Position numbers and translations under genes: made by a program
The notes under the pieces: generated by a model
Told to the model about the DNA's origin: nothing
What the model saw: only the letters and a program-made list of their open reading frames with translations
The model's database searches: none
Shown: positions 231 to 58,781 of the stretch, piece by piece
Position numbering within the stretch: position 1 is the stretch's first letter
Layout of the letters: every line of letters starts with the position of its first letter
Assembly: GCA_965217585.1 (NCBI GenBank)
Contig: OZ244561.1
Location: 4,832,001 to 4,896,000 of the forward strand
DNA length: 64,000 bases
Direction of reading: 5' to 3'
Source: Candidatus Latescibacterota bacterium
Lineage (GTDB): Bacteria; Latescibacterota; UBA2968; UBA8231

Positions 231-767
231 GTGTTCCTAGCCCGTAAAATCTCGCTCGCGAAGTGGTCGAAAAAAGGCGAGTTGGCGGAGGGCGAGATTC
301 CGGCAGATGCCGTGACCGCGGACCTGCGAACGCAAGACAACAAGCTTTTATTCTGGAGATGCGGCGACGGGGAGGGAATAGAAGTCAACGAGGCCGTACT
401 GGCACTAGCCGCCGCGGGAACTAGCGTCGATAAAATTGATGTTGTTTGGTTGGCTGCCGATGAACTACGCTCCGACGGTCAAACTTTGCAAGATACCAAG
501 GGACGAACCCCTGTCCTTGAGTTGGCCGAATTACACGTTGATGTGTGCCGATTGGATTACATGCGCCTCGGAAAGGTCGCTCAACACATTTTTACCGCAA
601 TCCAAAAGGATCAGTACCTTCGGCTTGGGAAAGCGCGTGTCAAGCAACTCTTGGCGGAGGCGGTCAAACAAGAGCGTATTAACCCTAACGATCTCCAGAA
701 GCGCGTTCGTGAGGAGCCAGGGCAATCGCATCAAAAGTGCCCAGCGGACAATACTTTAGCCAAATAG
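231..767 (+). CDS. Hypothetical protein, possible ADP-ribosyltransferase-like fold; C-terminus altered by ISAs1 insertion
   Basis: GTG start directly after upstream stop; N-terminal ARKI, LRTQDNKLLFW and late LHVDV pattern; native end REELGL* can be rebuilt across the IS. Confidence 0.6.
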   Translation: MFLARKISLAKWSKKGELAEGEIPADAVTADLRTQDNKLLFWRCGDGEGIEVNEAVLALAAAGTSVDKIDVVWLAADELRSDGQTLQDTKGRTPVLELAELHVDVCRLDYMRLGKVAQHIFTAIQKDQYLRLGKARVKQLLAEAVKQERINPNDLQKRVREEPGQSHQKCPADNTLAK

Positions 768-19835: not shown

Positions 19836-19999
19836 GGATGAATTGTGAATAGGGGTGAGAAGAGAAATGGGCTTCTTTATATCTTTATAATAGAACAGAT
19901 GGGGGGAACGTAGGCAATGATGCACAGACGCAGCGTCTCGTCCCACACTTGGCAAGCCCTAACACGAAAAAAAACGCTCGGCGCGGAGGAAAACCCTGT

Positions 20000-20281: not shown

Positions 20282-20369
20282 AATCAATGGGATTTTGGGG
20301 ATGGATTTCCTGACGGAAGCTAAGGCCATCATCAATCTGCAGGCGATGAGTCTTACATTCAATGGATGA
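20259..20369 (+). pseudogene. Internally deleted retropepsin-like aspartyl protease (36 aa)
   Basis: Translates MQLVRK-FEINGILGMDFLTEAKAIINLQAMSLTFNG*; C-terminal GILG.DFL motif present, catalytic DTG absent. Confidence 0.75.
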
Positions 20370-22176
20370 GCGTGCCGATGCCAACTTGGCCTGGCGCTTA
20401 GGTTGGCTCGTCCTCGCCCTCGCCCTCGCAGTGCGGGTCGCCTATATCTTCGAAGCAGATGCGAGTCCACTCTTTGTACATCCAGCAGTCGATGCCAAAA
20501 CGTACGCGCACCACGCCCAGCGCTTAGCTGCGGGCAACTGGTTGGGTGTCGGCGAGGGGCCGTTTTGGCAGCCGCCGCTCTACCCGTACTTCCTCGGGGC
20601 GGTAAAGGTTCTTTTTCCAGAGTCATTTTTTTACGCCGTGCGCTTTGTGCAGGCCCTGTTAGGGGCGCTGGTCTGCGCGATGAGTTGGTGGGTCGGTCGC
20701 GCTTTGTTCAATCCGGCGGTGGGGTTGCTCGCTGGGGTCGGCACAGCGCTGTGCGGGCCGCTGATCTTTTTTGACGGCGAGCTGTTGCCGGCTTCATTGG
20801 CCGCCTTCGTCGATCTGCTGGCCCTGGTAGTGCTTTTGCGCGTATGGCGTCGTCCGAGCCGTTGGGGCTTTTTGGGTGCTGGGGCGGCCTTTGGCGTCGG
20901 TGCGCTGGCCGTGCCGACGGTGCTGACCTTTGCGGTCGCCGTGCCCATTGTCCTCTTATGGCGCGCTCCTCGTCGGCAGGGCTTGGTCTGGGCCGGTGCG
21001 TTCTCGCTCGGGGTCATCTTGGCTATCGCGCCGGTGGCTTGGCGCAACTGGGCCATCGGCGGCGACGGGGTAGGGATTTCCTACAACGCGGGGATCAACC
21101 TGTACATCGGCAACAATCCCAACTATGCAGCAACCGTGGCCATCCGCCCAGGGTGGGAATGGGACGATTTAGTCACTCAACCGGCGCGGGAGGGGATTGA
21201 GCGACCTTCGGCCAAGTCGGCGTATTTTGCCGAGCGAGCTTGGGACTACATCAGTGGCGATCCGACTGGGTGGCTGGGATTGATGAGGCGTAAGCTGGGG
21301 GCGTTTTGGCACGGCGACGAGCGAGGGCGCAACCAGCCGATTTACTTCTGGCGCACCTACTCAACGGTGCTGTCGGCGACCCTGTGGAAAGCGGGTATTG
21401 CTTTCCCCTTTGGTTTGGTGGCCCCTCTGGCGCTGTGGGGAATGTTGCTGAGTCTGCGGCGAATTGGGCCGACGTGGCCGCTGCTGTACGTGCTGAGCTA
21501 TTGTCTGGGGGTGGTCGCGTTTTTTGTGGCGGCGCGCTACCGGGTGCCAGTGCTGCCGGTGCTCATAGTCTTTGCCGCCTACGGGTTGTGGGCGCTGTGG
21601 GACTGGGGACGAGCGGGCTGTTGGCGCAGCTTGGGGCTGGGGTTGGTTATCTGCTCGGCCTTTGCGCTGGCGGCCAATAGCCACCTAGCGCCGATGGACA
21701 TGGAGGGGGATGCGGCCATCCACTACAATCTGGGCAACGCGTATGCCGAGGCTGACGACAAAGAGCAGGGACTGGCGGCGTTTGAGCGGGCGGTGGCGGA
21801 AGACCCCGAGTACTGGCAGGCGTGGTTGAATCTAGGTGGGGTCAAGGCGGCGCTGGGCGATCTCGCAGGCGGTGAAGAAATTTTTGCGCGAGTGGCGCAA
21901 AAGGCCCCGCGGCAAGTCGAGCCGTGGATGAACTTGGCGCACGTGCGGATCATGCAGCGAGACCTAGAGGGGGCTTTTAGTTACTACGAGTCCGCGCTCG
22001 CGGCTAATCCCAAGTTGCTACCAGCCTACGTGGAGATGATCCGCCTCTACGGGCAGATGGGCGATCTAGCCCAGGCGGCGCACGTTCTCCAGCGGGCGGT
22101 CGATCATTTGCCCGCCCAGCGCGAGCGCTTGCGTCAGTTTTACGAAGAGATACAGATGCGGGCGTTGGGCCGCTAA
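20362..22176 (+). CDS. ArnT/PMT-like (GT39/GT83-type) membrane glycosyltransferase with C-terminal TPRs
   Basis: VDA.TY, PFWQPPLYPYFLG, GINLYIGNNP, ARYRVP; HYNLG TPRs. Confidence 0.85.
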   Translation: MDERADANLAWRLGWLVLALALAVRVAYIFEADASPLFVHPAVDAKTYAHHAQRLAAGNWLGVGEGPFWQPPLYPYFLGAVKVLFPESFFYAVRFVQALLGALVCAMSWWVGRALFNPAVGLLAGVGTALCGPLIFFDGELLPASLAAFVDLLALVVLLRVWRRPSRWGFLGAGAAFGVGALAVPTVLTFAVAVPIVLLWRAPRRQGLVWAGAFSLGVILAIAPVAWRNWAIGGDGVGISYNAGINLYIGNNPNYAATVAIRPGWEWDDLVTQPAREGIERPSAKSAYFAERAWDYISGDPTGWLGLMRRKLGAFWHGDERGRNQPIYFWRTYSTVLSATLWKAGIAFPFGLVAPLALWGMLLSLRRIGPTWPLLYVLSYCLGVVAFFVAARYRVPVLPVLIVFAAYGLWALWDWGRAGCWRSLGLGLVICSAFALAANSHLAPMDMEGDAAIHYNLGNAYAEADDKEQGLAAFERAVAEDPEYWQAWLNLGGVKAALGDLAGGEEIFARVAQKAPRQVEPWMNLAHVRIMQRDLEGAFSYYESALAANPKLLPAYVEMIRLYGQMGDLAQAAHVLQRAVDHLPAQRERLRQFYEEIQMRALGR

Positions 22177-22185
22177 TAGAAAAAA

Positions 22186-23865
22186 TTAAGGGCCTGGCTG
22201 GACGACTCTGAGCACTTGGTTGGCGGCGACCTTTTCTATGGTCTGATGCGTCCCGTCCGGCCAGCGGATTTCCACTTGGGCACTTGTTGCCGCGCCCAGC
22301 CCGAAGTGCAAGCGCGGGTCGTGGCTGGCCAGATAGCTGCCGCCCGATTGCCGCTCCTGCACTTGGCGCACCCCGTCGGCTACAACTTCTACCCGCGTTC
22401 CTAAGCCGTCGGGGTGGCTCTTTCCCACCAGTAGAATTTGCAAATAGTGCCGGGTATTGCCGCCGTCGTTGCGCAACAGCCGTGGCTGGGCTGCTACCGT
22501 GGTCACTAGGAGGTCGAGGTCGCCGTCGTCGTCGTAGTCGGCCACCGCCGTGGCTCGCCCGGCGTTGGCCCTTTGGAAATCCGCTCCCAATGCGGCCGAG
22601 ACGTCGGCAAAGCGGCGGCCGGCGTCGTTGCGGAACATCTGGTTGGGCTGCCGATAGGTCTGGCTCGAATCCACTTCCGCAATGCGGTTGATGACGTGGC
22701 CGTTGGCGGCGAACAGGTCGAGGTCGCCGTCGTTGTCGTAGTCGAAGAACTTGGTGCCAAAGCCGAGGGGCCGGTACGAGGGATCGGCCAGCCCCAAGCG
22801 CTGGGTGGCGACGGCGAATTGGCCTTGGCCGTCGTTGCGGTAGAGGGCATTGGTTTCAAAGGCGAAGTTGGTGACGAAGAGGTCGAAATCGCCATCGTGG
22901 TCGTAGTCGCCAAAATCGACGCCCATGCCCGCGTCGGCGTGCCCGTGCTCGTTGTAGCGAGTGCCGGCAATCAAGCCGACTTCGGCGAAGGTGCTGTGCT
23001 GGTTGGCGTAGAGGAAGTTCATGGTGCCGTCGTTAGCCACGTAGAGGTCGGTGTCGCCGTCGCGGTCGTAGTCGGCTAGCGCGACGCCCAGCCCCTTGCC
23101 CTTGAGTGTGATGCCGGTCTCTTCGGTGACGTCGGCGAAGGTATCGCCGTCGTTGCGGTAGAGGAGGTCGCCGGTGGGATCGTACACGCTAGGCTCGCAG
23201 TACGCGCGCACTTGGCCCTGCTGGCAGATGGCGTCGTCGTCGAGGGTATAGCGCACGTAGTTGGCGACGAAGAGATCGAGGTCGCCGTCGAGGTCGTAGT
23301 CGAGGAAGCCGGCACTGGTACCCCAGCGCGGATCTGCTAGGCCAGCCGAAGTTTTGGCAAAGATGCCGTGGTCGTTGCGGTAGAGGGCGTTGGGTCCGTA
23401 ATTGGCGACGAACAGGTCGGGGTCGCCGTCGGCATCGTAGTCTGCGGCGGCAACGCCAAAGCCGTAGCCGGGGTCGGCGCTGCCGCTGTGGGCGGTGACG
23501 TCGGTGAAGGTGCCCGCGCCTGCGTTGCGATAGAGGCGGTTGATCGGCGGTGGGTCTGGGGGATGACCGGTTAGGTAGGTGCCGTTGGCGAGGTAGAGGT
23601 CGAGGCGGCCGTCGCCGTCGTAGTCGAGGAAGGCGGCACCAGCACCAAAGGTTTCGACATAGTAGTATTCGCCGGAAAAGCCGTTGTAGTGGACGAAGTC
23701 GATACCAGCGTCGGCTCCGGCGTCGGCGAAATGTACCGGCGGTGCTGGGGGGTCTTGGGGGGCGCAGGCGCAGAGGGCGAGGGCGAGGGCAAGGCCCCAG
23801 ATCTGCACTTGAAATCGGATACGCGAACGTGCAGACTGCGCGACCTCTGTTATTTTTAAGCACAT
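22186..23865 (-). CDS. CRTAC1-family (FG-GAP + ASPIC/UnbV) lipoprotein
   Basis: Repeated DYDxDGDxDL; SGGSYLASHDPRLHFGLG, IRWPDG; LCAC lipobox (GTG at 23808 is an alternative start). Confidence 0.92.
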   Translation of the reverse strand: MCLKITEVAQSARSRIRFQVQIWGLALALALCACAPQDPPAPPVHFADAGADAGIDFVHYNGFSGEYYYVETFGAGAAFLDYDGDGRLDLYLANGTYLTGHPPDPPPINRLYRNAGAGTFTDVTAHSGSADPGYGFGVAAADYDADGDPDLFVANYGPNALYRNDHGIFAKTSAGLADPRWGTSAGFLDYDLDGDLDLFVANYVRYTLDDDAICQQGQVRAYCEPSVYDPTGDLLYRNDGDTFADVTEETGITLKGKGLGVALADYDRDGDTDLYVANDGTMNFLYANQHSTFAEVGLIAGTRYNEHGHADAGMGVDFGDYDHDGDFDLFVTNFAFETNALYRNDGQGQFAVATQRLGLADPSYRPLGFGTKFFDYDNDGDLDLFAANGHVINRIAEVDSSQTYRQPNQMFRNDAGRRFADVSAALGADFQRANAGRATAVADYDDDGDLDLLVTTVAAQPRLLRNDGGNTRHYLQILLVGKSHPDGLGTRVEVVADGVRQVQERQSGGSYLASHDPRLHFGLGAATSAQVEIRWPDGTHQTIEKVAANQVLRVVQPGP

Positions 23866-28547: not shown

Positions 28548-30575
28548 ATGAAAAATCCCCTTCTTTGCGCCGTTCTCATCGCCGCCTTGAGCGTCCTGCC
28601 CGCCACTGCCGACACCATCGTCGTCGGTGCGAGCGGACTGGGCTGGCGCAGTGGTGGCGGCGAAATCCAAGCCAAGGTCATTCGCAGTGCCCAAAGCGTT
28701 GAGAACACCAACGCACCCGGCGGCGTTATCGACTTTGCACCCGCTAATTTTGCGGACTGGATTTTTCCCCAGCGCGCCGATACCACGCTAAACATCGCCC
28801 TCGAGGCCAACACCGAGTCGCGCGGCGGTTCGATCACCTCGCCCAACAACCTCAACGTCCGCGGCGAACTGGCCAAGCTCATCGACAACGATGGCCAAAG
28901 CGGCCTCGATCTGCGCTTGAGTGCCGGGGCCAAAAGCGCCCAGGTTTTGGGGTTGATCATCGACTTGGATTTGGGCGCGCGCTTTGGCATCGATCGCTTC
29001 CGCTTTTTTCCGCGCAACGCCGCGCCCGAATTCCCCGCGCCGAATTTCCCCTTCCAGAACGACTTCATGCGCAGCTTTGAGATCTTCATCAACGACGGCA
29101 CGCCGGACACCCAGCGCGAAGGGGTGCCCATCCGCACGAGCGTGGCGCTGGAGGGCCAAAACGAAGAGGCGGTTGTCGATATCCGCATCCCGCCGCAATA
29201 CGTGCGCTTCGTGCGGCTCAAGTCCCTGACGGCGCTGGGTTTTGACATTGCCGAGTTCCAGGTCTTCGGCACGGGCTTTGTCCCCGAGGCCGTCTATATA
29301 TCCAACATCTTCGACTTTGGCGATCTGGCGCTGTTGGGCCATGTGCGCTGGGTGCAGGAGCAGGTCGGCGACGCGCAGCTCTCGCGGGTCGCGGTGCGTA
29401 CGCGGACTGGCATTGATCCCGAGCCGGTAGAATTCAACAAGGTGCGGCCCGGCGAGCAGATCTTCCGCGTCGGTGGGGGCAATGTCGGGTTGCGGTCGGA
29501 TGGGGCTGGGGTCAGCAGCGGCACCGGGATCAGCGGGGGCTTGGGCACGAGCGAGGTGGGGGTGCCGTGGAAATTCGCCAAAGACATCGAAGACGAGGCG
29601 CTGCAAGCGCTGGTTGCGGAGATCCTCGACAACGAGGAAGTGGATTTGCGCGACGCCGTGCAGGCGTTTAAGGCGCTCTCGCAGCGCTATCTGGAGGAGG
29701 CAGTACAAGGCGACGATCCGTGGTGTGCATTCGTCAGCTTTGAGGAGCCGCACGATCCCTTTATCGCTGGCCGCGAATTTTACGACCGCTATGCAGAGCA
29801 AGAGCTGCTGCCGCCGCCCAATGCCGATGATGATCTGGCGGACCGGCCGGGGCTTTATCGGCGAGCGCAGGGCATTTGGCGTCAGCTCAACGAGGAGCAG
29901 AAGCGTGCAGCGCGGGCGTGTTATTTCGCGTCGATTAGCGAAATAGATGCCCAATTCGGGCGGGTGATCGACTTTCTCGCAGAGGCGGGCAAACTCGAGG
30001 ATACGATCGTTGTAATGTGCGCCGACCACGGGGATTTGTTGGGAGCGCACGGTCTGTTCTTCAAGGATATTTCCGCTTTTGAAGAAGTGTATCAGGTGCC
30101 GCTTATTGTGCGTGGCCCGGGGATTGCTATGGACGCTATTTGCCAGGGTCGAGTTGGCTTGCACGATTTGTGCCCGATGTTGTTGGAGCTGGCCGACTGC
30201 GAGCCTATTGCTGGAGCCGATGTCCGCTCTTTTGTCGAGCTGTTGCGCGAACCGGCCCATGTCGCCGACGAATGGACCCGAGGGTATGCCGAATACTTTG
30301 GCAACCGCCACCGGCTGACGCAGCGGGTGGTGTGGGATGGGACGTGGAAGTTTGTGTTTAACGGCTTTGATTTCGACGAGTTGTACCAGCTAGACGAAGA
30401 TCCATACGAAATGAAGAATCTGGCGCAGGATCCAGCCTATGACGAGCAGGTTAAAAAGATGACGCGGCTCTATTGGCGTTATGCCCGCGATACGGGTGAC
30501 ACGCCGCTTTTTGAAACGCTCTATCCCGCGCTGCGTTTGGGTGCGGTGGGACCGCTGGCGGCGGATGAAGATTAG
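28548..30575 (+). CDS. Chimeric ORF: secreted-protein N-half fused to sulfatase C-half
   Basis: Signal peptide and IDLDLG.RF.I.R.RFFPR region, then PW...SF..PHDP, DTIVV..ADHGD.LG.HGL..K, ELY.L..DPYE..NLA; no CxPxR motif. Confidence 0.75.
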   Translation: MKNPLLCAVLIAALSVLPATADTIVVGASGLGWRSGGGEIQAKVIRSAQSVENTNAPGGVIDFAPANFADWIFPQRADTTLNIALEANTESRGGSITSPNNLNVRGELAKLIDNDGQSGLDLRLSAGAKSAQVLGLIIDLDLGARFGIDRFRFFPRNAAPEFPAPNFPFQNDFMRSFEIFINDGTPDTQREGVPIRTSVALEGQNEEAVVDIRIPPQYVRFVRLKSLTALGFDIAEFQVFGTGFVPEAVYISNIFDFGDLALLGHVRWVQEQVGDAQLSRVAVRTRTGIDPEPVEFNKVRPGEQIFRVGGGNVGLRSDGAGVSSGTGISGGLGTSEVGVPWKFAKDIEDEALQALVAEILDNEEVDLRDAVQAFKALSQRYLEEAVQGDDPWCAFVSFEEPHDPFIAGREFYDRYAEQELLPPPNADDDLADRPGLYRRAQGIWRQLNEEQKRAARACYFASISEIDAQFGRVIDFLAEAGKLEDTIVVMCADHGDLLGAHGLFFKDISAFEEVYQVPLIVRGPGIAMDAICQGRVGLHDLCPMLLELADCEPIAGADVRSFVELLREPAHVADEWTRGYAEYFGNRHRLTQRVVWDGTWKFVFNGFDFDELYQLDEDPYEMKNLAQDPAYDEQVKKMTRLYWRYARDTGDTPLFETLYPALRLGAVGPLAADED

Positions 30576-31774: not shown

Positions 31775-31933
31775 AGCACGGTGGTGCGCACGGTGGCGGT
31801 GGGTATTAACCCGATGCGAGAAATGCCAATATCGACGATATTTTATTGCGCAAGTAACCGCTGAGTTTGATAAAGCTCAAGTCTTTAGTTGCTGCTTGGG
31901 AAATACCGATGGAGGATTTTAAGGAAGGGACTT

Positions 31934-33253
31934 ATGGACCTTGAGTTGAAAATTGAGAATTTGGGGCCAATCGACAAGGCGACTATCCAAGTTGGTCGGT
32001 TCACGGTATTCGCCGGGCCGAATAACACGGGCAAGACGTTCGTGTCGAAGATGCTTTATTCAATTCTTAGTGCTATGAACGCGAATCATGCGCTAGTATT
32101 TTTTGATGTGATAGCCCGCGGCATAGAATCGAATTTGCAACTTTTCGAGCAGAGCGGTCGAGCGATAGAAGAACGCCCCTTGTCCGCAATTAGAAGGGCA
32201 CTCCAAAAGATCAACTCTATCCTACGGGAGGTGTTCCCAAGTCATCCGATCCAAGATGAACTTGACAAGCTCAGGGCGGTACAACCCGCGTTGATCGTTG
32301 AAATCAAGGAGATAAAAGTCCATTCCCAAATCCTTAAAAACAACTTTCATGTCGATCTTGAATCCTCCATAGACACTTTGGAAGAGTTTCTCGGGGATGT
32401 GGAAAAGGCGATTACTTTGGGGTGGTATTTCAGGCTTCGCCAGAACGTACACAGAAATTTTCAAGCATCTGATCTTTCAAATTTCAAAGGGGACGACGAT
32501 TCCTCTTTGTCTTTCAGGGTCCAAGGAGTGGGGAAATTAAGGATAACAAAAGAAAATCTTTTTGATCTCGATCACGATCCACAAATCGTTCAGAAAATGC
32601 AATCATTCCCAGAAGCCTTCTATTTCGAGTCTCCGCTTTATTGGAAACTGAAAAATGCTTTGGAGTCGATTAAGCTAGACTCACGTTCTCCTTTCGGGGC
32701 TTCTTTGAACGGCGTCCCAGATTACTTCTACGATATGGCCGTTGCCCTCAGAAGGAGGCGGATCGAACATCCTTTCTCCGGAATACATGAAAGTCTGCAT
32801 AAGGCGATTGGCGGGCAGATTTCGTTGAGTGAAGCGGGTGATCTTGAATTCCAGAAAAACGGCAAGTCGATTCCGCTCTCTCTCACGTCGGCGGGAGTTG
32901 CAAATATGGGAATGTTGGCCTTGCTGATTGAGCGAGGAGCCTTAGAGCGTGGCTCTTTTCTTTTTATTGATGAACCTGAGTCGAATCTCCATCCGGCTTG
33001 GCAAGTTGAAATGGCGGCGTTCCTTTTTGAATTAGCCCGTCAGGGTGTCAACGTGGTGGTCTCTACCCATAGCATGACGATCCTCAAGTGGCTTGAGGTG
33101 CATGTAAAGGAAAAACCGGAAGACCGGGAACTCGTCAGGTTGAATAAGTTTCCGCCGGACGCCGAATGGAACGACGACATGGACGCGGTGATGGCAGAAG
33201 TTAAACAGTCATTGACTAAGCCCTACTCTGATCTCTACATCAAAGGGCTGTAG
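31934..33253 (+). CDS. ABC-type AAA ATPase (AAA_15/AAA_21, AbiEii-like)
   Basis: IENLGPI, Walker A GPNNTGKT, TSAG signature, FIDEPESNLHP, STHS; AT-richer. Confidence 0.9.
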   Translation: MDLELKIENLGPIDKATIQVGRFTVFAGPNNTGKTFVSKMLYSILSAMNANHALVFFDVIARGIESNLQLFEQSGRAIEERPLSAIRRALQKINSILREVFPSHPIQDELDKLRAVQPALIVEIKEIKVHSQILKNNFHVDLESSIDTLEEFLGDVEKAITLGWYFRLRQNVHRNFQASDLSNFKGDDDSSLSFRVQGVGKLRITKENLFDLDHDPQIVQKMQSFPEAFYFESPLYWKLKNALESIKLDSRSPFGASLNGVPDYFYDMAVALRRRRIEHPFSGIHESLHKAIGGQISLSEAGDLEFQKNGKSIPLSLTSAGVANMGMLALLIERGALERGSFLFIDEPESNLHPAWQVEMAAFLFELARQGVNVVVSTHSMTILKWLEVHVKEKPEDRELVRLNKFPPDAEWNDDMDAVMAEVKQSLTKPYSDLYIKGL

Positions 33254-33254
33254 A

Positions 33255-33821
33255 ATGCCCTTATCCCAATTCGTCAAGCCAATAGAGTCTATAGAGTCTA
33301 TCGGCGACTTTAAAGCGTATCGAATGGACAGCACGAAGGGAGGGTCCAACATGCGCGACGATGCCGGACTTGGAACATGCGAGTGCTGCGACTATGTAAC
33401 AATCAGCAAGGACAACCAAAGCGTTTTTCTCATAGAGGAAACCAACTTAGAGTACACGATATATAATTTCAAACAGGATTATGATTACCTTGAAGAAGCC
33501 GATGAAAATAAATTGTTTTACGAGAAAATTCTTGGGGAGAATCGGCTTAAACTTTATGGATCGATGTTGGTCCTGTGTCGCCTGTCAAGCTTGCAGGACG
33601 ATGTGAAAGAATTTCTGCCGAAGGATAAGTTTCAATTCTGGCTCGTAACGACCGGCACCGCTCCGTCTCCGTTGGACTCTACTATATTGATGGACCACCT
33701 GAGCGATAGGTTGAGAATTGATCTGAAAAGTCCATTCGGAGGGATGATGAATGCGGTCGATATTATTCCGTCAACTAAGCTGGCCGAAAAACTATCGGAC
33801 GAAGCTATGGAAGTAGAATAA
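33255..33821 (+). CDS. Hypothetical protein, possible PD-(D/E)xK nuclease-like partner of the ATPase
   Basis: Starts 1 nt after ATPase stop; CECCDY...VFLIEET..E..LK pattern. Confidence 0.6.
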   Translation: MPLSQFVKPIESIESIGDFKAYRMDSTKGGSNMRDDAGLGTCECCDYVTISKDNQSVFLIEETNLEYTIYNFKQDYDYLEEADENKLFYEKILGENRLKLYGSMLVLCRLSSLQDDVKEFLPKDKFQFWLVTTGTAPSPLDSTILMDHLSDRLRIDLKSPFGGMMNAVDIIPSTKLAEKLSDEAMEVE

Positions 33822-47705: not shown

Positions 47706-48284
47706 CTACGTCCCAGCGGTGATAGAAAATTGGCTCATTGACAACCTGCCGGTAACTTCGCTGGAAAATCCGACGAAGGAGAAACCGTAACTCTCGGCCC
47801 GGCTCAACACCTGTTCGAGGGCGACGGGATGGCCCGGGTCGGCAGACCAACTGCGGTGCCATTGGTTTTCATCTGCTGCAAGTGCAAGGCGATTGGCCGT
47901 CCAAACGCCCTCTTCTAGAGCGAGAGGATGGGCTGTGTAGTGCCAGCGCGTGCTAGCGGCGTGTACCCAGAAGAAACACTGGGCACCGTCCAAACGCAGC
48001 CGATCGGCCCTCAGGTGGACTGCAACTGCGGACTGGCGCATATCGAGCGGGTCAACGCCGACCCAGCTGCGGTAGCACAGCAGCGGCAGGATAGACAGGG
48101 GGCGCTCCGGGGTATCGGCGCTCCAGCGCCGGTGATCGGTCCAGATAAAGCTCCCATTGTCCACACCGCCCTGCGCGGCCCAAGTGGCTAGGATGAAGAT
48201 ATTGCTACCGTCGGCCACCATGCTGGCGTGGTAGTCGTACGAACACCAGCCTTCTGGCCCTTTGTCGAAGTTGTTTTTCATCAC
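47706..48284 (-). CDS. Hypothetical protein
   Basis: GAGGAG RBS; Trp-rich 192-aa ORF; family not recognised. Confidence 0.65.
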   Translation of the reverse strand: MMKNNFDKGPEGWCSYDYHASMVADGSNIFILATWAAQGGVDNGSFIWTDHRRWSADTPERPLSILPLLCYRSWVGVDPLDMRQSAVAVHLRADRLRLDGAQCFFWVHAASTRWHYTAHPLALEEGVWTANRLALAADENQWHRSWSADPGHPVALEQVLSRAESYGFSFVGFSSEVTGRLSMSQFSITAGT

Positions 48285-48395
48285 ATTCTCTCCTCAGAAG
48301 CGTTTTTAAAACCCGGGGTCTGAGTAGCAATAGGTGCGATCCAAGGTGATCAGCCAATCTTTCCGGGGCGGTAAAAGGGTAAAAGGAATCAAGGG

Positions 48396-49145
48396 TTAAC
48401 GAATCCTTAAAAGGCGCACGCCAACGCCAAGGTGGCGGGCGTCGGGCGAGGGGTTGGCGCGAGCCGCCGACCGCACACCCTGGGCATCATAGCGGAAGTC
48501 GCCGCCCCGAATGACGCGAGTAGAGCCGACGGTATACCAGTCCTGTACCCATTCCCAGACATTCCCATGCATATCATACAATCCCCAAGGATTCGCTTTC
48601 TTCAGACCCACTGCATGACTCATACTCCATCCATTCGCAGAATACCACGCATAGTCAGTAAGCTGACTCTCGTCATCCCCAAACGACCACCGCGTCGTAG
48701 TACCCGCCCGACACGCATATTCCCACTCCGCCTCAGTCGGCAAACGATACAGCACCCCACCCGCCGCCACATTCAACTCCTCTATGAAAGACTGCACGTC
48801 TTTCCAAGAAATATTCACGGCCGGATGAGACGGCCCCCTGAGCGCATCGTCTTTCTTAGATGGAGGCCGCGACCCCATGACCGCCTCCCACTGACCCTGC
48901 GTCACCTCATACTTACCCAAGTAGAACCCTTGACTGATCTCCACCTCCCGTACCGGCCCTTCATCCTGATTTCGTCCCACCTCCGAATCCGGCGATCCCA
49001 TCTGAAAGGTCCCAGGCTCAATCCAAACAAACACCATCTTGGCACCATTAGGCAAAGAAAATGTCTTCTCAGCGCCCGTCGAGTTGTCGCCGAGGCAAGC
49101 AATCGGTACCAGCAACCCCAGCAGACATACGGTCAAAAACTTCAT
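48396..49145 (-). CDS. FGE-sulfatase (SUMF1/C-type lectin fold) lipoprotein; candidate DGR target
   Basis: F.MGS, KYEVTQ.QW, RLPTEAEWEYACRAG, NPWGLYDMHGNVWEW, RVIRGG; PIAC lipobox-like. Confidence 0.9.
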   Translation of the reverse strand: MKFLTVCLLGLLVPIACLGDNSTGAEKTFSLPNGAKMVFVWIEPGTFQMGSPDSEVGRNQDEGPVREVEISQGFYLGKYEVTQGQWEAVMGSRPPSKKDDALRGPSHPAVNISWKDVQSFIEELNVAAGGVLYRLPTEAEWEYACRAGTTTRWSFGDDESQLTDYAWYSANGWSMSHAVGLKKANPWGLYDMHGNVWEWVQDWYTVGSTRVIRGGDFRYDAQGVRSAARANPSPDARHLGVGVRLLRIR

Positions 49146-49265
49146 AGCTATAGCTCCCTTATATAGAAGAATGAAAGAAGTGAGAAACAGTCATGTACTC
49201 TGCCATCGCCTAATCCTCCGATTGGGTTTACACAATACGCGGCCGTCCGGGCGGGACCTGTCTCT

Positions 49266-50876
49266 CTAGCGCTCGAATCTGTAGGTGAAGTCCACGGTCT
49301 GGACCGGCTCGCCGCGGTAGTCGTATCTCAGCACCGCGTCCTTCACCGTGACCTGGATGTCGCGGACGTCCGGGTCCAGCCCCGTAAACAAGACGTAGCC
49401 GGACACCTCCTGGCGGTTGAAGACCGCGTCCGCCGTGAACAGCGCCTCGCGCAGCAGCTCATTGCGATCCCTGCCTGGGGAGGGGACTGGGGCGAAGTAC
49501 GCAGGAGCCAGATTGTGCCACTTGCGGCCATCGGGGGACCGCATCACGATGCTTGCCGGGTCGATGAACACCTTCGGGTAGTAGTAGTTTCTCACCCCAA
49601 GGCGGAACACCGTGCTATGCCGGAAGTCTCCCCGCGCCGGGAACTGGCGGTTGAGCTCTTCGGCCGTCATGGGGCGCAGGGACACCTCGAAGCGGTTCAG
49701 GGTGAAGCGAACCGAGCCGTCGTCGGCCACGGTCATAGCCTCCGCCTGCTCGGCAGCAGGGCGCAAGGAGGCCTTGTCGGCCGTCTCTGCGTATCGGGTT
49801 CCATCGGCCAGCGAGAGCGTAGCGATCAGACAACTCACGCAGCCGATCAGCACCCCCACACGCAGCATCTGATGCCGCTGCACAGGTCTTCGGTCAGACT
49901 GTTCGTCGACCAGAGCGCGGATACGTGCGACGAGACTTGACGACTGGACTACCGGCAGAGAGGCAGTGGAGTTGAAATAGCGCGCGTTCATGGCGATCTC
50001 CATTAGATGGCGGCCATACGATGAGGATCGCTGGCCGGCGTTGAGCACGAAGTCATCGCACGCCTTCTCTTGCTCCAGGCGCAGACATCTGAAGGCGTGC
50101 CAGACCATCGGATGGAACCAGTAGAAGGCGGTGATGATGCGAGCGAAGAGCTGTGTGGTCTGGTCGCCGCGACGAGCATGGGCAACCTCGTGTAGCAGTG
50201 CGATCCTGATCCGGTCGGCGGGCCAGGTCTGGGCCGAGAGAGGAATGGCCACGGCTGGCCGTATGAAACCCCAGGTAACCGGTACCGGTATGCGCGGGCT
50301 GACCAGTATGCGGATCGGTCGCCGGACCAGTCCGTTGCGTTCCAGCTCTGCGGCGATGTCGGCCCATAGGCCGCTGGTCACACAGCGGGCATCGGCCAAC
50401 CAGCGTCTTCTCGATCGGTAATCGCGCACAAGCCCGGATAAGGAGGCGATGAGCCCGGCCATCCACAAACCCAGTAAGAAGGGATACAGCCTGGATGATC
50501 CGGTGCCGGAATGGCTGGAAGCCAGAATGCCATCGAGCTTGCCGGCCAGTGGGGAGCCCGGCGGATCGCTGTTAATCTGCGATGGAATCGGCGAAAGTCC
50601 TGGAGGGGATTTCACCGCTGCTTCGCCGTCGTATAGTGAAACGGCTCCCTCGAATATCCCCGATAAACCGGACACAAAGGAGAGAGGTGGCAATAAGATA
50701 GAGAAGGCAGGAAGCAACAGGAGGGCGAAAAAAGCGGCCAACCACAGGGCGTGACGCAGCGCCGCCGATGAGCGCCACAGGGCCGTCATGAGCCATGCGA
50801 TCGACACAATGCCCGCGCTTTTGATCGTCATTTCGAGCAGGAATCTGGCGGCATCAAAGGAGGAGGCTCCGGCCAT
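49266..50876 (-). CDS. BlaR1-like M56 metallopeptidase fused to an unknown C-terminal domain
   Basis: SAALRH.LW, LLHEVAH.RRGD, WFHP.VW, E.ACDD. Confidence 0.88.
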   Translation of the reverse strand: MAGASSFDAARFLLEMTIKSAGIVSIAWLMTALWRSSAALRHALWLAAFFALLLLPAFSILLPPLSFVSGLSGIFEGAVSLYDGEAAVKSPPGLSPIPSQINSDPPGSPLAGKLDGILASSHSGTGSSRLYPFLLGLWMAGLIASLSGLVRDYRSRRRWLADARCVTSGLWADIAAELERNGLVRRPIRILVSPRIPVPVTWGFIRPAVAIPLSAQTWPADRIRIALLHEVAHARRGDQTTQLFARIITAFYWFHPMVWHAFRCLRLEQEKACDDFVLNAGQRSSSYGRHLMEIAMNARYFNSTASLPVVQSSSLVARIRALVDEQSDRRPVQRHQMLRVGVLIGCVSCLIATLSLADGTRYAETADKASLRPAAEQAEAMTVADDGSVRFTLNRFEVSLRPMTAEELNRQFPARGDFRHSTVFRLGVRNYYYPKVFIDPASIVMRSPDGRKWHNLAPAYFAPVPSPGRDRNELLREALFTADAVFNRQEVSGYVLFTGLDPDVRDIQVTVKDAVLRYDYRGEPVQTVDFTYRFER

Positions 50877-50878
50877 CT

Positions 50879-51268
50879 TCAGCGTCCTTTCTCTCTCGCT
50901 TCGGTCAGTAGCGCATCCAGCCGGGCGATTTCCTCTGGGGTCAGCTTATCCCCTTCCAGATCGATGAGAGCGGCGATCGCCCTGGATGGTGAACCGCCGA
51001 AGAACGTGCGCAGCACCTGGCGTAGCGCGGATGTTTGGGTCTGTTGATGCGGCCAGGTCGGTGAGTAGACGAAGCGCGGTCCCTCTTTCCGGTGTTTGAG
51101 ATAGCCTTTGTTTTCGAGATGCCTCAACCAGGTCCGCACCGTCGCGTTGGTTAAGGCAGGCGATAAGTCCTCTTGCACTTGACTGGCTGTAGCCTCGCTG
51201 CGCCGGAAGATGATGTCCATGATCTGGCGTTCCCGGCGACCGAGTTCGAGATAGTCGTGGTCACTCAT
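50879..51268 (-). CDS. BlaI/MecI/CopY-family repressor
   Basis: LGRRERQIMDII, TVRT.L..LE.KG.L, FFGGS. Confidence 0.92.
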   Translation of the reverse strand: MSDHDYLELGRRERQIMDIIFRRSEATASQVQEDLSPALTNATVRTWLRHLENKGYLKHRKEGPRFVYSPTWPHQQTQTSALRQVLRTFFGGSPSRAIAALIDLEGDKLTPEEIARLDALLTEAREKGR

Positions 51269-52273: not shown

Positions 52274-54214
52274 TTACCATCCGTGCATGCGGTGTCCCTC
52301 CGCTGGGAACCAGATCAGATCCACTACCATGGAAAAAACTACTCCGACCACATAACCGATGGCCAGGCCATAGAACAGGGGTTTACCGGCGATGTAGGCC
52401 TTGGCCCCGCCGTAGCGCAGCAGGGCTATTTTGACAATCCACACGATGAACAGACTGAACCAGTAGAGGCGGAGACCGAACGTGTGCTGGAAGGCCAGGC
52501 CGATGGGATGGAAGGGGAACCAGTGGAAATAGCCGCGCAGCAGGGCGATGAGCGCGGCTTCGCCAAAGCCGAAGAGCCACACCGCCCACTTGCCTGGGTC
52601 GGGCAGCATGGGGTTGTTGAGCAGATAAACCATGTCTTGGAAGATCCAGTTGGCTTTGCCGCCGAGGAAAAGCAGGCCGCCTCCATCATAGGCTAGGCTG
52701 ATCGTCTCGATGGCCAATACGACGAATCCGATGGGAAAGGCGATCAGGACCATTGCCGTCAGCCGCCCGGGCTGCCGCTCTAGGGAAAACAGGCGGAAGC
52801 AGTGAGGCAGAGCTGGCCAGGCCGGGATGCGGAAGGTGCCGAAGAAGGCATTGCTGGTGAATACCTTAAACGCCACTAGGCTGCGCGGCGACTGGAAGGC
52901 CGAACCGACTAGCTCGATGAGGAAGGAGTCGCCCTTGATATGGGGTTTGTTGGGCAAGAGATAGGCAAAGCCGGTGGCGGCGACGAGTTTGGCTATGACG
53001 AAGTAGGTCAGCGTCATCAGCAGGAAAGCGCCAATAGCCACGGGCAAGCTCATGCCCAGTTGCACTCCCCAGCCGATGACGCTGAGCGCCGACAGAATCA
53101 GGCCAGCCAAGGCCAGCCGGTAGAGCGCGACCTGACGTGGCTCGCCCTGGCCGCTGCGCACTTGGTGCCACACCTGACGCAAGTGGCGTCGGGCCAGCCA
53201 GATGGACCACAGGCCGATGAAGACTAGGGCGCCGTAGCTCTCCATGTAGATGATGTTTTGCGCCTCGGGCTGCTGGCCGGCGGCACCCACGGCAAAGCCA
53301 CCGATGGAAAAGCCGGTTCGCTTCATTATGGCGATCTTGAGCGCGGCCAGCAAGTGGAAAAAGATCAGGCTGCCGAGGATGTCCACCGGACACAAATAGG
53401 TCACGGCCATGATCAGCGGCAGAATGCGCACGGTCAGAAAAAAGTCCGGTGTCAAGTGAAGATCGTAGAATTTCCAGTAGAATTCGACGGGTGGCAGGCC
53501 TAGGGCGAAGTAGGTGGCGATATTGTAGAGTATGGGCAGGAAAACCAAGGCGAAGCCAATCCAGAAGACGGGCTTGCGAAATAGCTCGGGCCGTTGCTTG
53601 TCCTCAAAGCCACGGGTCAGGTCTAAGGGCATTTGCGCCAGTGGAAAGGTCAGCTTCTCGGCCTCAACCCACTGTTTGTGGAAAAGGGCGATTAGGCAGA
53701 AGCCGAAGACTACCATGCCCATAGAGACGCCGAGCCACTGGCCAATGGCACCGATCCACCCGTCCCAGGGAATGGAGCCCCCTTCGGGCAGGCCAAACCA
53801 AAACGGATCGATTACCCGGGGAGAGGGATTGGCAAAGACGTGCCAGGGAAGGTAGTGGAAAAGGGTCTCTTCCCACTGGTTCTCGGCCGTGGCGAAGTAA
53901 CTTGGTGACCCCATGATCGAGGTCCAATAGGTCATCCAGCCCAACTGCGGAATGGTACCCACTACCCAGAGCATGGAGAACAGGGTCAGCAATTCGCCGC
54001 GGCTGAGCGCTAGGCGCGGCCAGAGTGCCCTGAGCGCGGTATTGAGGAAGAGCCACAGCACAAAGGGCATGAACGTGGCCATGGGGAATTGCGAGTGGAC
54101 GTAGCTACCTATCCCTAGGCGCTGGCCAACGTTGACGATGTAGTAGAAGTTGGCGGCTATGGTCAGGGTGCCTAGGACAATAGCGCGCGCGGTGATCTGC
54201 GGCGAACCGCTCAT
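52274..54214 (-). CDS. DUF6785/DUF6784 polytopic membrane protein
   Basis: YFATAENQW, KQW...EKLTFPLAQMP, WFPFHPIG, LRYGG, PLFYGL.IG. Confidence 0.85.
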   Translation of the reverse strand: MSGSPQITARAIVLGTLTIAANFYYIVNVGQRLGIGSYVHSQFPMATFMPFVLWLFLNTALRALWPRLALSRGELLTLFSMLWVVGTIPQLGWMTYWTSIMGSPSYFATAENQWEETLFHYLPWHVFANPSPRVIDPFWFGLPEGGSIPWDGWIGAIGQWLGVSMGMVVFGFCLIALFHKQWVEAEKLTFPLAQMPLDLTRGFEDKQRPELFRKPVFWIGFALVFLPILYNIATYFALGLPPVEFYWKFYDLHLTPDFFLTVRILPLIMAVTYLCPVDILGSLIFFHLLAALKIAIMKRTGFSIGGFAVGAAGQQPEAQNIIYMESYGALVFIGLWSIWLARRHLRQVWHQVRSGQGEPRQVALYRLALAGLILSALSVIGWGVQLGMSLPVAIGAFLLMTLTYFVIAKLVAATGFAYLLPNKPHIKGDSFLIELVGSAFQSPRSLVAFKVFTSNAFFGTFRIPAWPALPHCFRLFSLERQPGRLTAMVLIAFPIGFVVLAIETISLAYDGGGLLFLGGKANWIFQDMVYLLNNPMLPDPGKWAVWLFGFGEAALIALLRGYFHWFPFHPIGLAFQHTFGLRLYWFSLFIVWIVKIALLRYGGAKAYIAGKPLFYGLAIGYVVGVVFSMVVDLIWFPAEGHRMHGW

Positions 54215-55726: not shown

Positions 55727-55909
55727 ACCGGACTCCTTTCAATAGGACTAGTACCAGATTGTATTCGAGCTGCCGCTTCGTCCCGCAGGGGGACCTGCAA
55801 AACAGTTAGGATATCAGTGGTTCAAATTGGTATAAAACCTGTGTTGTGGGAAGAAAGAACCTATTTTATGGTCGGCTACTGTATTGTCGCTTCCCGAATC
55901 ACATAGAAT

Positions 55910-57060
55910 ATGGCTCGCTTGGTTCTCTTTTTTTTTTTGCTGCCGCCACGAGTGCCCACGCTCAGGCTAGGGACGCTTCTGGGGCGGCGGCTATTGCCTA
56001 TCACAGCGCCAAGGTGCTCTTTGAGAAAGGCGACTTACAGGGCGCGGTGCAGTTCTATCACCGCGCCATTGAGCTCGACCCCCAGCGCCTCGCCGCTCAC
56101 CTCGATCTGGGCGTCGCCCTCTTTCAACTCGGCGATGCGGACGGTGCTCTGGCAGCATTCCGCACGGTCCTGCGCCTCGATCCCGAACACGCGCTAGCGC
56201 ACAGCTACCTAGGCAATGTGCTGTACAGCCGCCGGGATGTCGAGAGCGCGGTGCGGTCCTATCGCCGCGCCATTGAACTCGACCCCGCATTGGCTCAAGC
56301 CCACAGCGACCTAGGTGCCATCTTCTACGGACTGGGCGATGTGGAAGGGGCCATTGCCGCGTGCAGCCGGGCGGTCGAGCTCGAGCGCGACCATGTACAG
56401 GCGCGCTACAACTTGGGCTTGGCCTTCAAAAAAAAAGGCGATTCGGAGAAAGCGGTCCAATCCTTTCGGCGTGCCATGCAGGCCGATTCTACCTACGTTC
56501 CAGCCCGCTACAGTCTGGCTCTGCTGCTCTATGAGCGGGGCAATGCAGCAGAGGCCATCGCTCAGTACCACCAGATCATCGGCCTAGACCCCAAGCATAG
56601 CCGCGCCCACAACAATCTAGGCCACATCCTCTACAGCCGCGGTGATGTCATCGGTGCCATGGCGCTCTTGCAACGCGCCCTCGAACTAAACCCCGACTAC
56701 GCCCAGGCCCACTTCAATCTGGGCTTGGCCTGCAAAAAGCAGGGGCGGATCGACGAGGCAGTGCAATCGTTCGGTACTGCTCTGCGCCTGCGCCCGGGCC
56801 ATGTCCGCGCCTACAACCACCTAGGTGCCGCGCTCCACGCCCGCGGCGATAGGGGTGCTGCGGTCCAGGCCTACCAGCAGGCTATCCGCCTCAAGCCCGA
56901 CTTTGCTGGCCCGCGCTTTGGGCTGGCCACCATCCTGCAGGAGCAGGGCAATGAGGCGGCCGCCGTTCAGCAGTACCGTGCCATTATCAGTACCGGCGAC
57001 GATGAGCACTTACAGCGCATGGCGCAACAAATCCTCCGCGCTATGGGGGAAAAACCGTAG
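55910..57060 (+). CDS. Secreted TPR protein, frameshifted at a T11 tract in the signal peptide
   Basis: About 10 TPRs (A..NLG); ATG 55910 MARLVLFFF joins FAAATSAHAQA only if the T-run 55928-55938 is 12 or 9 long. Confidence 0.78.
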
Positions 57061-57062
57061 AT

Positions 57063-58781
57063 TCAGCGCTTTGCAGCGGCAATGCCCCGGCCTTCTTCTA
57101 CTACCACAAAACGATCCCCCGCCACTTGGGTGTATTGGTCGATTAAACCGCTGGGCCAGCGGATTTCTAGGGTATCCACTGCGACGCTCGGCCCTAGTCC
57201 AAAAGTGAGCCACAGACTGTTGTGCGATAGGTAGCTCGAGCCGGCGGTCACTTCTCTGAGCTGTTGCTGGCCGCTGGTGACTAGGCGCACTCTGGCACCG
57301 ATGCCGTCGCGGTTGCTGTTGATGCCCAAGGTACGGACGGTTAGCCAGTGATTGTCGCTGGCGGTGTCGTTGCGCAATAAGGTAGGCACGTCGTTTTTGT
57401 TGACCACGAAAAGATCCTCATCGCCGTCGCCATCGTAATCGCCGACAGCAGTGCCCCGGCTCGATTTGACGATCTGTAGGCCCGGCCCGGCTTGCGCGCT
57501 CAAATCGACGAAGGCGACACCATCGTTGCGGAAGAGATTGTTCTTCTGGGCGTAGCTCGACTGCGGAAAATAATCCTCTAGGGCAGCAGTGACGTGGCCG
57601 TTGGCAATGAAAATATCCAGGTCGCCGTCGCGGTCCCAGTCGAAGAGAGCCGTGCCCCACTGCAGCGGCATGAGGGTGGTGCGGGCGACGCCAGCGGCAA
57701 AGGAGATATTGGCGAAGGCGCGGCCGTCGTTGCGGTGGAGGGTGGTGGTCTGCCCTTCGTAATTGCTCACCGCTAGATCCAGATCGCCGTCGTTGTCCCA
57801 GTCGCCGGTGGCCAGACCCATGCTGCCCTCGGGCCGGCCATCAGCGTCGTAGGCCACGCCCAAGGCCAAGGCTTCTTCGGCAAAGGTACCGTCGTCTTGG
57901 TTGGTGTAGAGGAAATTGGGGGTGGCGTCGTTGGCCACGTAGAGGTCCAGATCGCCGTCGTCGTTCCAGTCCAGAAAGGTGGCTCCCAGCGCCTTGCCCG
58001 GGACGGCGTTGAGTCCGGCACCTGCGCTGACATCGGCGAACGCGCCGTTGCCGTCGTTGCGATACAGCACATCGGGCTGGCCAGCAAACGCTTCGGGCGA
58101 AGCTACGCTGGCCAGCCCGCGCTGGCCGCCGAAGAAACCGTCGCGCTGCTCGCCGGGCAGCAGGGTGGTCGCTGGATCGAAGACCACGTAATTGCCGGCA
58201 AAAAGGTCCAGGTCGCCGTCGTTGTCGTAGTCCCCGAAGGCGCAGGCCGTGCCGTAGCCATCGTCGTCTGCCCCGGCCAGTGCGCCGGTCTCGGCAAAGG
58301 TGCCGTCATCTTGATTGGCAAAGAGGAGGTTGGGGCCGTAGTAGGTGATGTATAGGTCGGAGTCGCCGTCGTTGTCGTAGTCCCCGGCCACACAGCCAGA
58401 GCCCCAGCCGCTAGCATCGGTACCGGTCTGTTTGCTGACATTGACGAAGGTGCCGCCGCCCCGATTGCGGAACAGGGCGTTATGCGGAACTTCGCCGTTG
58501 GCCGGAGGTCGCACGTCGCGCGGCAGATCGGCATAGCGCGCACCGGTAAAGCCTAGGCCGCCGTTGACGATGTATAGGTCGAGCCGACCGTCGCTGTCGT
58601 AGTCGAAAAAGGCGGCACCTGACCCGGTCGTCTCTAGGATCGTGAGGGCGTTGTTATTGCCGTACCAATTGCGGAAGGCCAGACCCGCCTCCTGGGTTAC
58701 ATCGGCGAAGCGGGGTTGGGCATTGCAGATGGCAGCGCCGAGGAGAGCGGCTAGGAGCAGTAAATTAATTGTTGGCGCCAG
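57063..58781 (-). CDS. CRTAC1-family (FG-GAP + ASPIC/UnbV) protein with probable CTG start
   Basis: Frame continues upstream of 58514 through RFADVTQEAGL and GSGAAFFDYD to a signal peptide; CTG at 58781 lies 8 nt from GGAGG. Confidence 0.88.
   Translation of the reverse strand: MAPTINLLLLAALLGAAICNAQPRFADVTQEAGLAFRNWYGNNNALTILETTGSGAAFFDYDSDGRLDLYIVNGGLGFTGARYADLPRDVRPPANGEVPHNALFRNRGGGTFVNVSKQTGTDASGWGSGCVAGDYDNDGDSDLYITYYGPNLLFANQDDGTFAETGALAGADDDGYGTACAFGDYDNDGDLDLFAGNYVVFDPATTLLPGEQRDGFFGGQRGLASVASPEAFAGQPDVLYRNDGNGAFADVSAGAGLNAVPGKALGATFLDWNDDGDLDLYVANDATPNFLYTNQDDGTFAEEALALGVAYDADGRPEGSMGLATGDWDNDGDLDLAVSNYEGQTTTLHRNDGRAFANISFAAGVARTTLMPLQWGTALFDWDRDGDLDIFIANGHVTAALEDYFPQSSYAQKNNLFRNDGVAFVDLSAQAGPGLQIVKSSRGTAVGDYDGDGDEDLFVVNKNDVPTLLRNDTASDNHWLTVRTLGINSNRDGIGARVRLVTSGQQQLREVTAGSSYLSHNSLWLTFGLGPSVAVDTLEIRWPSGLIDQYTQVAGDRFVVVEEGRGIAAAKR

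Follow-up and report, generated by a model that had tools for sequence, protein, structure and literature searches.

A 64,000-nt stretch of the genome of a Candidatus Latescibacterota bacterium (assembly GCA_965217585.1, contig OZ244561.1, positions 4,832,001 to 4,896,000; hereafter the window) was analysed for a gene that encodes a protein with a formylglycine-generating enzyme (FGE)-sulfatase domain. The 3' end of this gene had been flagged, in an initial annotation made from the sequence alone, as a variable region of a target of a diversity-generating retroelement (DGR). The open reading frame (ORF) has 249 codons including the DGR-like 3' end and is read from the minus strand, with codon G207 beginning at 48527 and the stop codon at 48398-48396 (coordinates of the features are collected in Table 1). 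The encoded C-terminal peptide ends in ...GSTRVIRGGDFRYDAQGVRSAARANPSPDARHLGVGVRLLRIR, directly followed by the stop. The flagged interval, 48370-48527, comprises codons G207 to R249, the stop codon, and 26 nt downstream.

The FGE-sulfatase domain (Pfam PF03781) extends over residues 39-247 with an E-value of 5e-46. In sequence searches of the Protein Data Bank (PDB), the best match was PvdO (5hha, 2.3e-26), with an alignment that stops short of the variable region, at residue 203-206, and the second was TvpA, Treponema denticola variable protein 1 (2y3c, 1.2e-24), aligned over residues 133-244, through the variable part. An AlphaFold2 (AF2) model generated from a 73-row alignment had a mean predicted local distance difference test (pLDDT) score of 86 and a predicted template modelling (pTM) score of 0.84. 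The top Foldseek match of this model in the PDB was TvpA 2y3c (E-value of 1.4e-20, query-normalised template modelling score [TMq] of 0.80), with PvdO and the catalytic FGEs ranking lower. The variable columns, 209-241 of 249 residues, are at the C-terminus of this FGE-subclass C-type-lectin fold, as is the case for DGR targets of this subclass. All NCBIfam equivalogs scored under their cut-offs; PvdO was the best of them with 122 bits (cut-off 500), followed by GldK with 57 (350) and EgtB with 39 (360).

FGE catalysis requires a C-terminal, copper-binding pair of cysteines, Cys336 and Cys341, and the PDB titles among the Foldseek matches, which name C336S and C341S mutants of FGE, agree with this location. 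The cysteines of the window protein are at residues 7, 17, and 145 only, with none after 145. A catalytic FGE/SUMF1 identity was ruled out, as the C-terminal cysteine pair is missing. PvdO and catalytic FGE/SUMF1 share the Pfam domain with the window protein, but the PvdO match stops before the variable region and is far below the 500-bit cut-off. The protein is a binding protein, probably a lipoprotein, and not a formylglycine-generating (sulfatase-maturing) enzyme, and the gene should be annotated as such.

The N-terminus, MKFLTVCLLGLLVPIAC, is a probable lipoprotein signal peptide, judged by inspection of the sequence; it ends in a lipobox-like PIAC with Cys17, and the homologues carry L(I/V)AC at the position of this PIAC. 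Residues 1-18 have a pLDDT below 50 and are disordered in the AF2 model. TvpA is also a lipoprotein. The window gene probably encodes a small secreted binding protein with a TvpA-type FGE/C-type-lectin fold that is lipid-anchored. By analogy with what has been proposed for TvpA (PMC5758913, PMC3575424), its function is likely to be ligand binding at the cell surface via the variable face.

Footprint of the variable region

Variable and scaffold positions were defined from a family alignment, independently of the initial annotation. The homologue search scored 8000 candidates, and the best 120 of these were used for the family comparisons; the alignment had 119 rows after removal of the near-duplicate P0002. 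The homologues have a common C-terminal scaffold, GS-x-RV-x-RGG-x-F-xxx-A-xx-VRSA-x-R-xxx-SP-xx-R-xxxx-G-x-RLLR, in which the residues at x are unrelated. Column entropy was bimodal, with 15 columns (within 209-240) of at least 3 bits flanked by columns of <0.7 bits. All 13 positions flagged at the outset coincide with hypervariable columns of the family, to which the set of 15 adds 212 and 216. The residues K, Q, E, M, and W account for 68 of the 1760 residues (3.9%) in the 15 hypervariable columns, compared with 118 of 577 (20.5%) in the only five comparably variable columns of residues 30-204 (Fisher p 9e-32). Their scarcity fits a template codon AAC, the adenine randomisation of which cannot yield those five residues. 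Columns 212 (I/L/V/F) and 241 (I/V/L/F) have the spectrum expected from an ATY template codon (Y, pyrimidine), and column 222 (R/Q/L/P) has the spectrum expected from a CAG template codon.

The relation between body and variable residues was compared over 6,901 homologue pairs. Among the 20 most similar pairs, with body identities of 0.85-0.99, nine share at most 3 of the 15 variable residues, ten share at least 10 of 15, and one shares 6; the background identity of variable residues is ~0.10 for pairs at 0.6-0.8 body identity. One of the pairs, P0036 and P0050, has bodies that are 99% identical, 3 of 15 variable residues in common, and the same longest contig (10.28 Mb) reported, a pattern that would be expected of several live targets served by a single DGR.

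The window gene has 18 variable codons (209, 212, 216, 218-220, 222, 223, 228, 230-232, 235, 236, and 238-241), 17 of which are NNY (N, any base); the exception is the CAG in the R/Q/L/P column (222). The 13 codons listed in the initial annotation (ACT, CGC, TAT, GAT, GGT, GCT, GCC, AAC, CCC, GCC, CAC, CTT, and GGC) are indeed all NNY. The ten degenerate variable codons are all NNY, with P=0.003 under the codon usage of the window and P=2.7e-6 under that of the gene body, and the absence of any third-position A or G among them leaves the footprint still crisp. Adenine is absent from all 21 scaffold codons (P=0.013 under window usage and 0.0075 under gene-body usage). The variable codons are compatible with adenine mutagenesis of AAY-type codons, set in a scaffold that is free of adenine.

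The share of NNY is 33/43 in the last codons of the gene vs. 84/206 in its remainder and 57.6% over the 18,659 codons of 40 window genes. Third-position C is 10.8% in the gene body, where G is 50% and T 29%, and 53.8% in codons 207-245, where third-position A is 0%; it is 33-44% in the four neighbouring genes. The caveat, raised at the outset, that NNC codons are common in GC-rich DNA does not hold for this gene. With third-position C of 10.8% in the gene body, a GC-rich codon bias fails to explain the NNY codons because the gene's own bias runs the opposite way.

By likelihood, the change point for third-position C is after codon 201 (~48542), with 21/201 before and 24/48 after it (p 7e-9). 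On the plus strand, the GC skew ranges from -0.25 to -0.47 over 48500-49024 and is ~0 over 48425-48574. P0003, the closest long-form relative, is longer by 15 residues between Y204 and T205: in the window protein ...WVQDWY is directly followed by TVGSTRV..., vs. ...WVQDGYNDFYNSSPRVDPPGPSSGSLRV... in P0003. Other short-form relatives are P0040, P0065, and P0120. The codon usage of the gene body (48530-49145) suggests a foreign origin for this part of the gene. For the deletion and the break together, an illegitimate 5' junction in a homing event and recombination with a short-form paralogue both fit.

Comparison with an intact DGR cassette was made through the plasmid collection, in which a tblastn search gave 467 records, all with <60% identity, and two of these (H1 and H3) were inspected. 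H1, a homologue on a Methanomethylovorans plasmid, has no reverse transcriptase (RT) annotated within 8 kb. H3 is a homologue on plasmid pPAES01 of Prosthecochloris aestuarii DSM 271 (NC_011061.1), with 41% identity over 99% of the query. The cassette on pPAES01 has the order FGE-family target, HRDC, Avd, RT (RNA-directed DNA polymerase), template repeat (TR), and second FGE-family target. The TR sits just past the RT, and the mismatches between the TR and the first variable region (VR1), over 81 nt without gaps, are at template adenines in 8 of 8 cases. The template translates as ...SGRNRVNRGGSWNNDARNLRSANRNNN-LGFRLV, and its Asn codons (AAC/AAT) align with T209, I212, R218, Y219, G223, A228, A230, N231, and P232 of the window protein, so residues that had been flagged as Asn-derived match a real template. 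In both variable regions of pPAES01, third-position A is 0-2% and C is 43-48%, while in the gene bodies A is 17-19% and C is 25-29%. The pPAES01 targets and the window gene thus have the same scaffold and the same break in codon usage of the variable region against the body. They differ in extent, as the whole cassette of pPAES01 fits within 5 kb and the window contains nothing of it but the target. They also differ in the template, as SPxxRxxx is missing from that of pPAES01, which leaves the second half of the variable region in the window without an equivalent. As the initial annotation proposed, the 3' end of the gene is built like a DGR variable region, as seen in the NNY codons, the adenine-free scaffold, the hypervariable columns, and the alignment with the pPAES01 template.

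FGE-type C-type-lectin proteins are the largest class of DGR targets. TvpA (PDB 2Y3C), the prototype of such targets, likewise has a C-terminal variable region, but its sequence identity to the window protein is only 28%. Where most FGE-type proteins, 2y3c among them, have GGSW...GFR, the window protein has GGDF...GVGVR, and, unlike TvpA, it is without a loop of ~15 residues ahead of the variable region. The cognate template and RT of TvpA are known in its genome, whereas for the window protein none was found in the searches made. According to Wu et al. (PMC5758913), the DGR of TvpA also serves seven remote targets.

Relatives and template searches

A variable region identical to that of the window gene was found in four protein records (P0001, P0002, P0121, and P0226). 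P0001 differs from the window protein by the single change R146L, and P0002 differs by four changes, all in the body; P0121 is the window's own shorter ORF. Shorter proteins were searched for with residues 150-249, which gave 570 matches at E<=0.001 among 624 candidates; the best 120 of the 570 were inspected, and the only close matches among them were P0121 and P0226, both with the identical variable region. P0226 is a 52-aa protein from another contig. Its first 13 residues are unrelated to the window protein and correspond to a different frame of the window DNA immediately upstream of the variable region, which looks like a disturbance of the frame. The record points to indels, or to a disrupted copy, where the variable region begins in that other assembly.

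At the nucleotide level, the window was compared with OZ220690.1 (L001), the 6.6-Mb chromosome of a Candidatus Latescibacterota metagenome-assembled genome. The two are 94.05% identical over 13,822 nt, with 97-98% identity in the block 47750-51250 vs. 91-95% further out. Over the 750-nt gene there are 11 differences, of which 10 are in codons 1-206 (618 nt) and one is in the 129 nt from G207 to R249 (CAG to GAG, Q222E). Neither in the four records nor in L001 are the differences mainly at the variable codons, and the variable region has changed no faster than its surroundings since the lineages of the window and L001 split. In P0003, the body of which is ~90% identical, 6 of the 9 covered variable columns differ and the scaffold is unchanged.

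The absence of a template and of retroelement proteins from the window, noted at the outset, was borne out. No RT or Avd was found among the 44 ORFs of the window in a Pfam scan. For the template, both strands of the window were scanned in windows of 60-120 nt with adenine and non-adenine mismatches scored, and only the self-match appeared; the closest candidate other than the region itself has 12 mismatches at non-adenine positions over 60 nt. An adenine-tolerant pattern was then made from the 66 nt over V224-L245; it accepts A in place of any non-adenine base and allows zero non-adenine mismatches. This pattern matched once in the window and in 0 of 100 shuffles. In 185,579 genomes it matched once, in L001, and this match is the orthologous variable region itself; the 6.6-Mb chromosome has no perfect adenine-compatible template. 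The interval 48380-48560 had no match in the phage and plasmid collections with blastn in distant mode. A cognate template differing only at adenines was found neither in the window nor in the 185,579 genomes, the phages, or the plasmids. None of the 240 protein homologues that were fetched is Asn-rich in the variable region, and their most Asn-rich 40-residue stretches are ordinary. A literature search for DGRs in Latescibacteria brought up only unrelated work, and the word "Latescibacter" is absent from the main text of PMC8144416. The further claim of the initial annotation, that the gene is diversified in trans at present, was not supported, given the identical region in four records, the single change in 129 nt in L001, and the lack of a template in 185,579 genomes.

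The tract downstream of the stop had been described as a pyrimidine tract resembling an initiation of mutagenic homing (IMH) site. The tract, CCTTTTACCCTTTTACC, is present 9 nt past the stop and is T-rich, but it includes two A's and consists of CCTTTTAC twice plus C; its IMH-like nature was not supported. As described by Wu et al. (PMC5758913), the IMH forms the final part of the variable region and begins GC-rich. Measured against this description the tract has the wrong place and the wrong composition; it also has no fold and no terminator, its second half is not conserved in L001, and it was rejected as an IMH. Only its first 12 nt, CCTTTTACCCTT, are common to L001, which corresponds to the first 21 nt after the stop. 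Beyond CCTTTTACCCTT, the window and L001 cannot be aligned for ~60 nt, and this stretch looks like a small local replacement at the 3' edge of the gene. Near 48330-48375, L001 has a ACCCTTGA...TCAAGGG stem followed by a T-run, and the window is without both. No hairpin was found after the variable region, where folding was no better than that of shuffles (z -0.91), and no terminator-like site was found in the downstream region; GC-rich inverted repeats are reported in only 34% of DGRs (PMC5758913). If the region were a live target, the candidate position of the IMH would be the stretch that begins with the GC-rich GGCGTGCGCC at 48422-48413, directly after the last variable codon, and continues through the conserved ...GVRLLRIR tail and the stop (Table 1). 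This candidate stretch is identical in L001. An IMH is defined as an imperfect repeat of the IMH* of the template, and the GGCGTGCGCC stretch has no known template.

Origin and present state of the variable region

The variable region is best read, with a probability of about 0.6, as one that was born of a DGR and is now static, the gene being an orphaned or dormant target that retains its last-written specificity. This reading is preferred because diverged genomes keep the same version of the region and no cognate template was found. An error-prone RT would have copied a template repeat with AAY, ATY, or CAG variable codons, the adenines would have been randomised, and the 3' end of the gene (the last ~40 codons) would have been replaced. 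Such rewriting would leave NNY codons at the positions that face the ligand, a scaffold without adenine, and a codon usage that shifts abruptly where the block begins. The block would then have stopped changing in this lineage; genomes that are 2-6% diverged keep the same version. These steps were inferred from the footprint and the relatives. The stasis of the variable region is observed directly, and the retroelement has presumably been lost.

Several points weigh against an orphaned or dormant target. The crisp footprint argues that the last rewriting is not ancient, because there is no third-position A or G among the ten degenerate variable codons. Likewise, rewriting seems to have continued until fairly recently before it stopped, because P0003 differs at 6 of 9 variable columns with the scaffold unchanged. 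The 90%-identity clusters of P0001 (13 members) and P0002 (64 members) could hide variants of the variable region, and the assemblies give a consensus sequence, in which low-frequency variants would not show. The source genome is outside the scanned collection, and an RT and template may lie elsewhere in its chromosome of ~7 Mb. An imperfect template could also have escaped the 66-nt scan, because zero non-adenine mismatches were allowed and real targets sometimes have several; such targets are reported by Wu et al. (PMC5758913).

Some of the same points would favour a live remote target, in which a DGR (RT, Avd, and TR) elsewhere in the chromosome still rewrites the region in trans and the relatives look alike because homing is rare or one variant is strongly selected. 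Wu et al. (2018, Nucleic Acids Research; PMC5758913) assigned 73 non-adjacent targets to 45 of 372 DGRs, and the remote targets documented there include some >100 kb from the RT, among them a short protein with an FGE-sulfatase domain only, which the window gene resembles. The codon footprint is undecayed, the GC-rich stretch after the last variable codon is where an IMH should begin, the template searches covered 64 kb of the source genome, and variants are possible among the 13 and 64 cluster members. However, the remote targets of Wu et al. rest on a template in the same genome with A-to-N differences only (PMC5758913), and no such template was found here, neither in the L001 chromosome nor in the 185,579 genomes. 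The region is the same in four records and differs from L001 at 1/129 nt vs. 10/618 nt in the rest of the gene, with flanks ~6% diverged, whereas one homing event would be expected to alter many of the 18 variable codons together. There is also no RT or Avd in the 64 kb and no inverted repeat after the region, although only 34% of DGRs have one. A target that is still being rewritten is therefore considered unlikely.

The break at the 5' edge of the block can be explained in another way, namely that a DGR target, paralogous or foreign, donated the block through recombination or gene conversion, that this exchange caused the 15-residue deletion and the codon break, and that the locus itself was never a homing site. 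The change point (~48542) coincides with the lineage-specific deletion relative to P0003, the third-position usage of the body is unlike that of the four neighbours while the 3' block resembles them, the alignability with L001 ends 21 nt past the stop, and short-form relatives (P0040, P0065, and P0120) exist. Genuine DGR variable regions such as those of pPAES01, however, show a like break without recombination, so that the break alone does not demand it. The window contains no donor paralogue, and P0003 shares the scaffold and 3 of 9 variable residues, which fits descent and rewriting at the locus. On balance such an acquisition is improbable. An ordinary FGE-family C-terminus with no retroelement history, in which loops vary under selection and the NNY codons come from a GC-rich bias, is the least probable of the explanations and would be surprising. 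Its scaffold, R-V-x-R-G-G...R-S-A-x-R...P...G-x-R, is indeed common to the whole FGE-sulfatase family, including the enzymes; the Pfam match reaches residue 247; 57.6% of the codons of the window genes are NNY anyway; and binding sites in general favour Y, S, G, D, and N. Against it, the third-position C of 10.8% in the gene body means that codon bias predicts the opposite, and by the gene's own usage the probabilities are 0.0075 for the scaffold adenines and 2.7e-6 for NNY. K, Q, E, M, and W are fivefold scarcer specifically in the hypervariable columns, the position-specific spectra (212, 241, and 222) match single-adenine codons, some homologue pairs with 85-99% identical bodies have variable-residue identity at the random level of ~10%, and a homologue belongs to a proven TR/VR pair (pPAES01).

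Along with an orphaned or dormant target, a more elaborate history may be imagined, although it is offered as speculation that is doubtful in its entirety. A gene with a body of foreign codon usage, in which third-position C is 10.8% vs. ~42% in the neighbours, would have been captured, its 3' end overwritten by a resident DGR in trans through an illegitimate 5' junction that deleted ~15 codons right at the composition break, the retroelement lost or silenced, and the specificity fixed by purifying selection across lineages. If true, this would be a natural case of a DGR-selected binder turned into an ordinary, domesticated gene. Remote targets have been described before, and one more in Candidatus Latescibacterota is in itself no surprise. 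The footprint (NNY variable codons, adenine-free scaffold, and break in codon usage) is recognisable from the target alone, and here it occurs without present-day variation. A survey that takes the RT as its starting point is blind to orphaned or dormant targets, and counting them would show how often specificities written by DGRs become fixed.

Neighbouring genes

Table 1. Coordinates of the FGE-family gene, the features within and next to it, and its upstream neighbours in the 64,000-nt window.
Feature	Position	Strand	Basis
FGE-sulfatase/C-type-lectin-fold gene, TvpA-like, non-catalytic, 249 aa	48396-49145	-	Pfam, PDB, AF2, Foldseek
DGR-type variable region, codons G207-L245	48411-48527	-	Column entropies, K/Q/E/M/W depletion, codon tests
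Break in composition with a lineage-specific deletion junction, immediately 5' of the variable region	48531-48545	-	Change point, GC skew, comparison with P0003
Probable signal peptide ending in lipobox-like ...PIAC (Cys17)	49095-49145	-	Sequence MKFLTVCLLGLLVPIAC, then LGDN
Candidate IMH position, if the region is a live target	48389-48422	-	Inferred from the description in PMC5758913
Direct repeat after the stop, CCTTTTAC twice plus C (CCTTTTACCCTTTTACC)	48370-48386	-	Read in the window
BlaR1/M56-type membrane sensor-protease, upstream same-strand neighbour	49266-50876	-	Pfam PF05569, 8e-34
BlaI/CopY-type repressor, upstream same-strand neighbour	50879-51268	-	Pfam PF03965, 3e-27

For the BlaI/CopY-type and BlaR1/M56-type neighbours, the NCBIfam scores were under the cut-offs. 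The downstream ORF (47706-48284) had no family match in Pfam, NCBIfam, or PADLOC, and no PADLOC family was matched by the FGE-like protein together with this downstream neighbour. An antisense frame at 48432-49166 (plus strand) is open for 244 codons and is probably a by-product. A sulfatase-family protein (PF00884) is encoded at 28548-30575 (plus strand), 18 kb from the FGE-like gene; this closeness is probably a coincidence, because the FGE-like protein is without the catalytic cysteines.

Elsewhere in the window, a transposase with DDE_Tnp_1 and DDE_Tnp_1_assoc domains (731-1924, minus strand) marks an insertion sequence at the left end. An AAA_15/AAA_21 ATPase at 31889-33253 (plus strand) had matches in PADLOC to the defence ATPases HEC-02A (8e-32), PD-T4-4_A (2e-31), and AriA (5e-20), and the gene for a 188-aa partner without a family match (33255-33821, plus strand) starts 2 nt past its stop; the two are possibly a two-gene defence system. 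Two FG-GAP/ASPIC-UnbV proteins (22186-23865 and 57063-58514, both minus strand) each have a TPR protein beside them (20362-22176 and 55846-57060) and form with it a repeated gene pair. Three DUF6785+DUF6784 paralogues (5840-7783, plus strand; 17916-19955, minus strand; 52274-54214, minus strand) had Pfam E-values of 3e-123 to 9e-83. Each of these genes is amid aldo/keto reductases, GFO/IDH/MocA oxidoreductases, GH116/GH95 glycoside hydrolases, or xylose-isomerase-like TIM barrels, and the DUF6785+DUF6784 proteins may be the transporters of repeated sugar-utilisation clusters.

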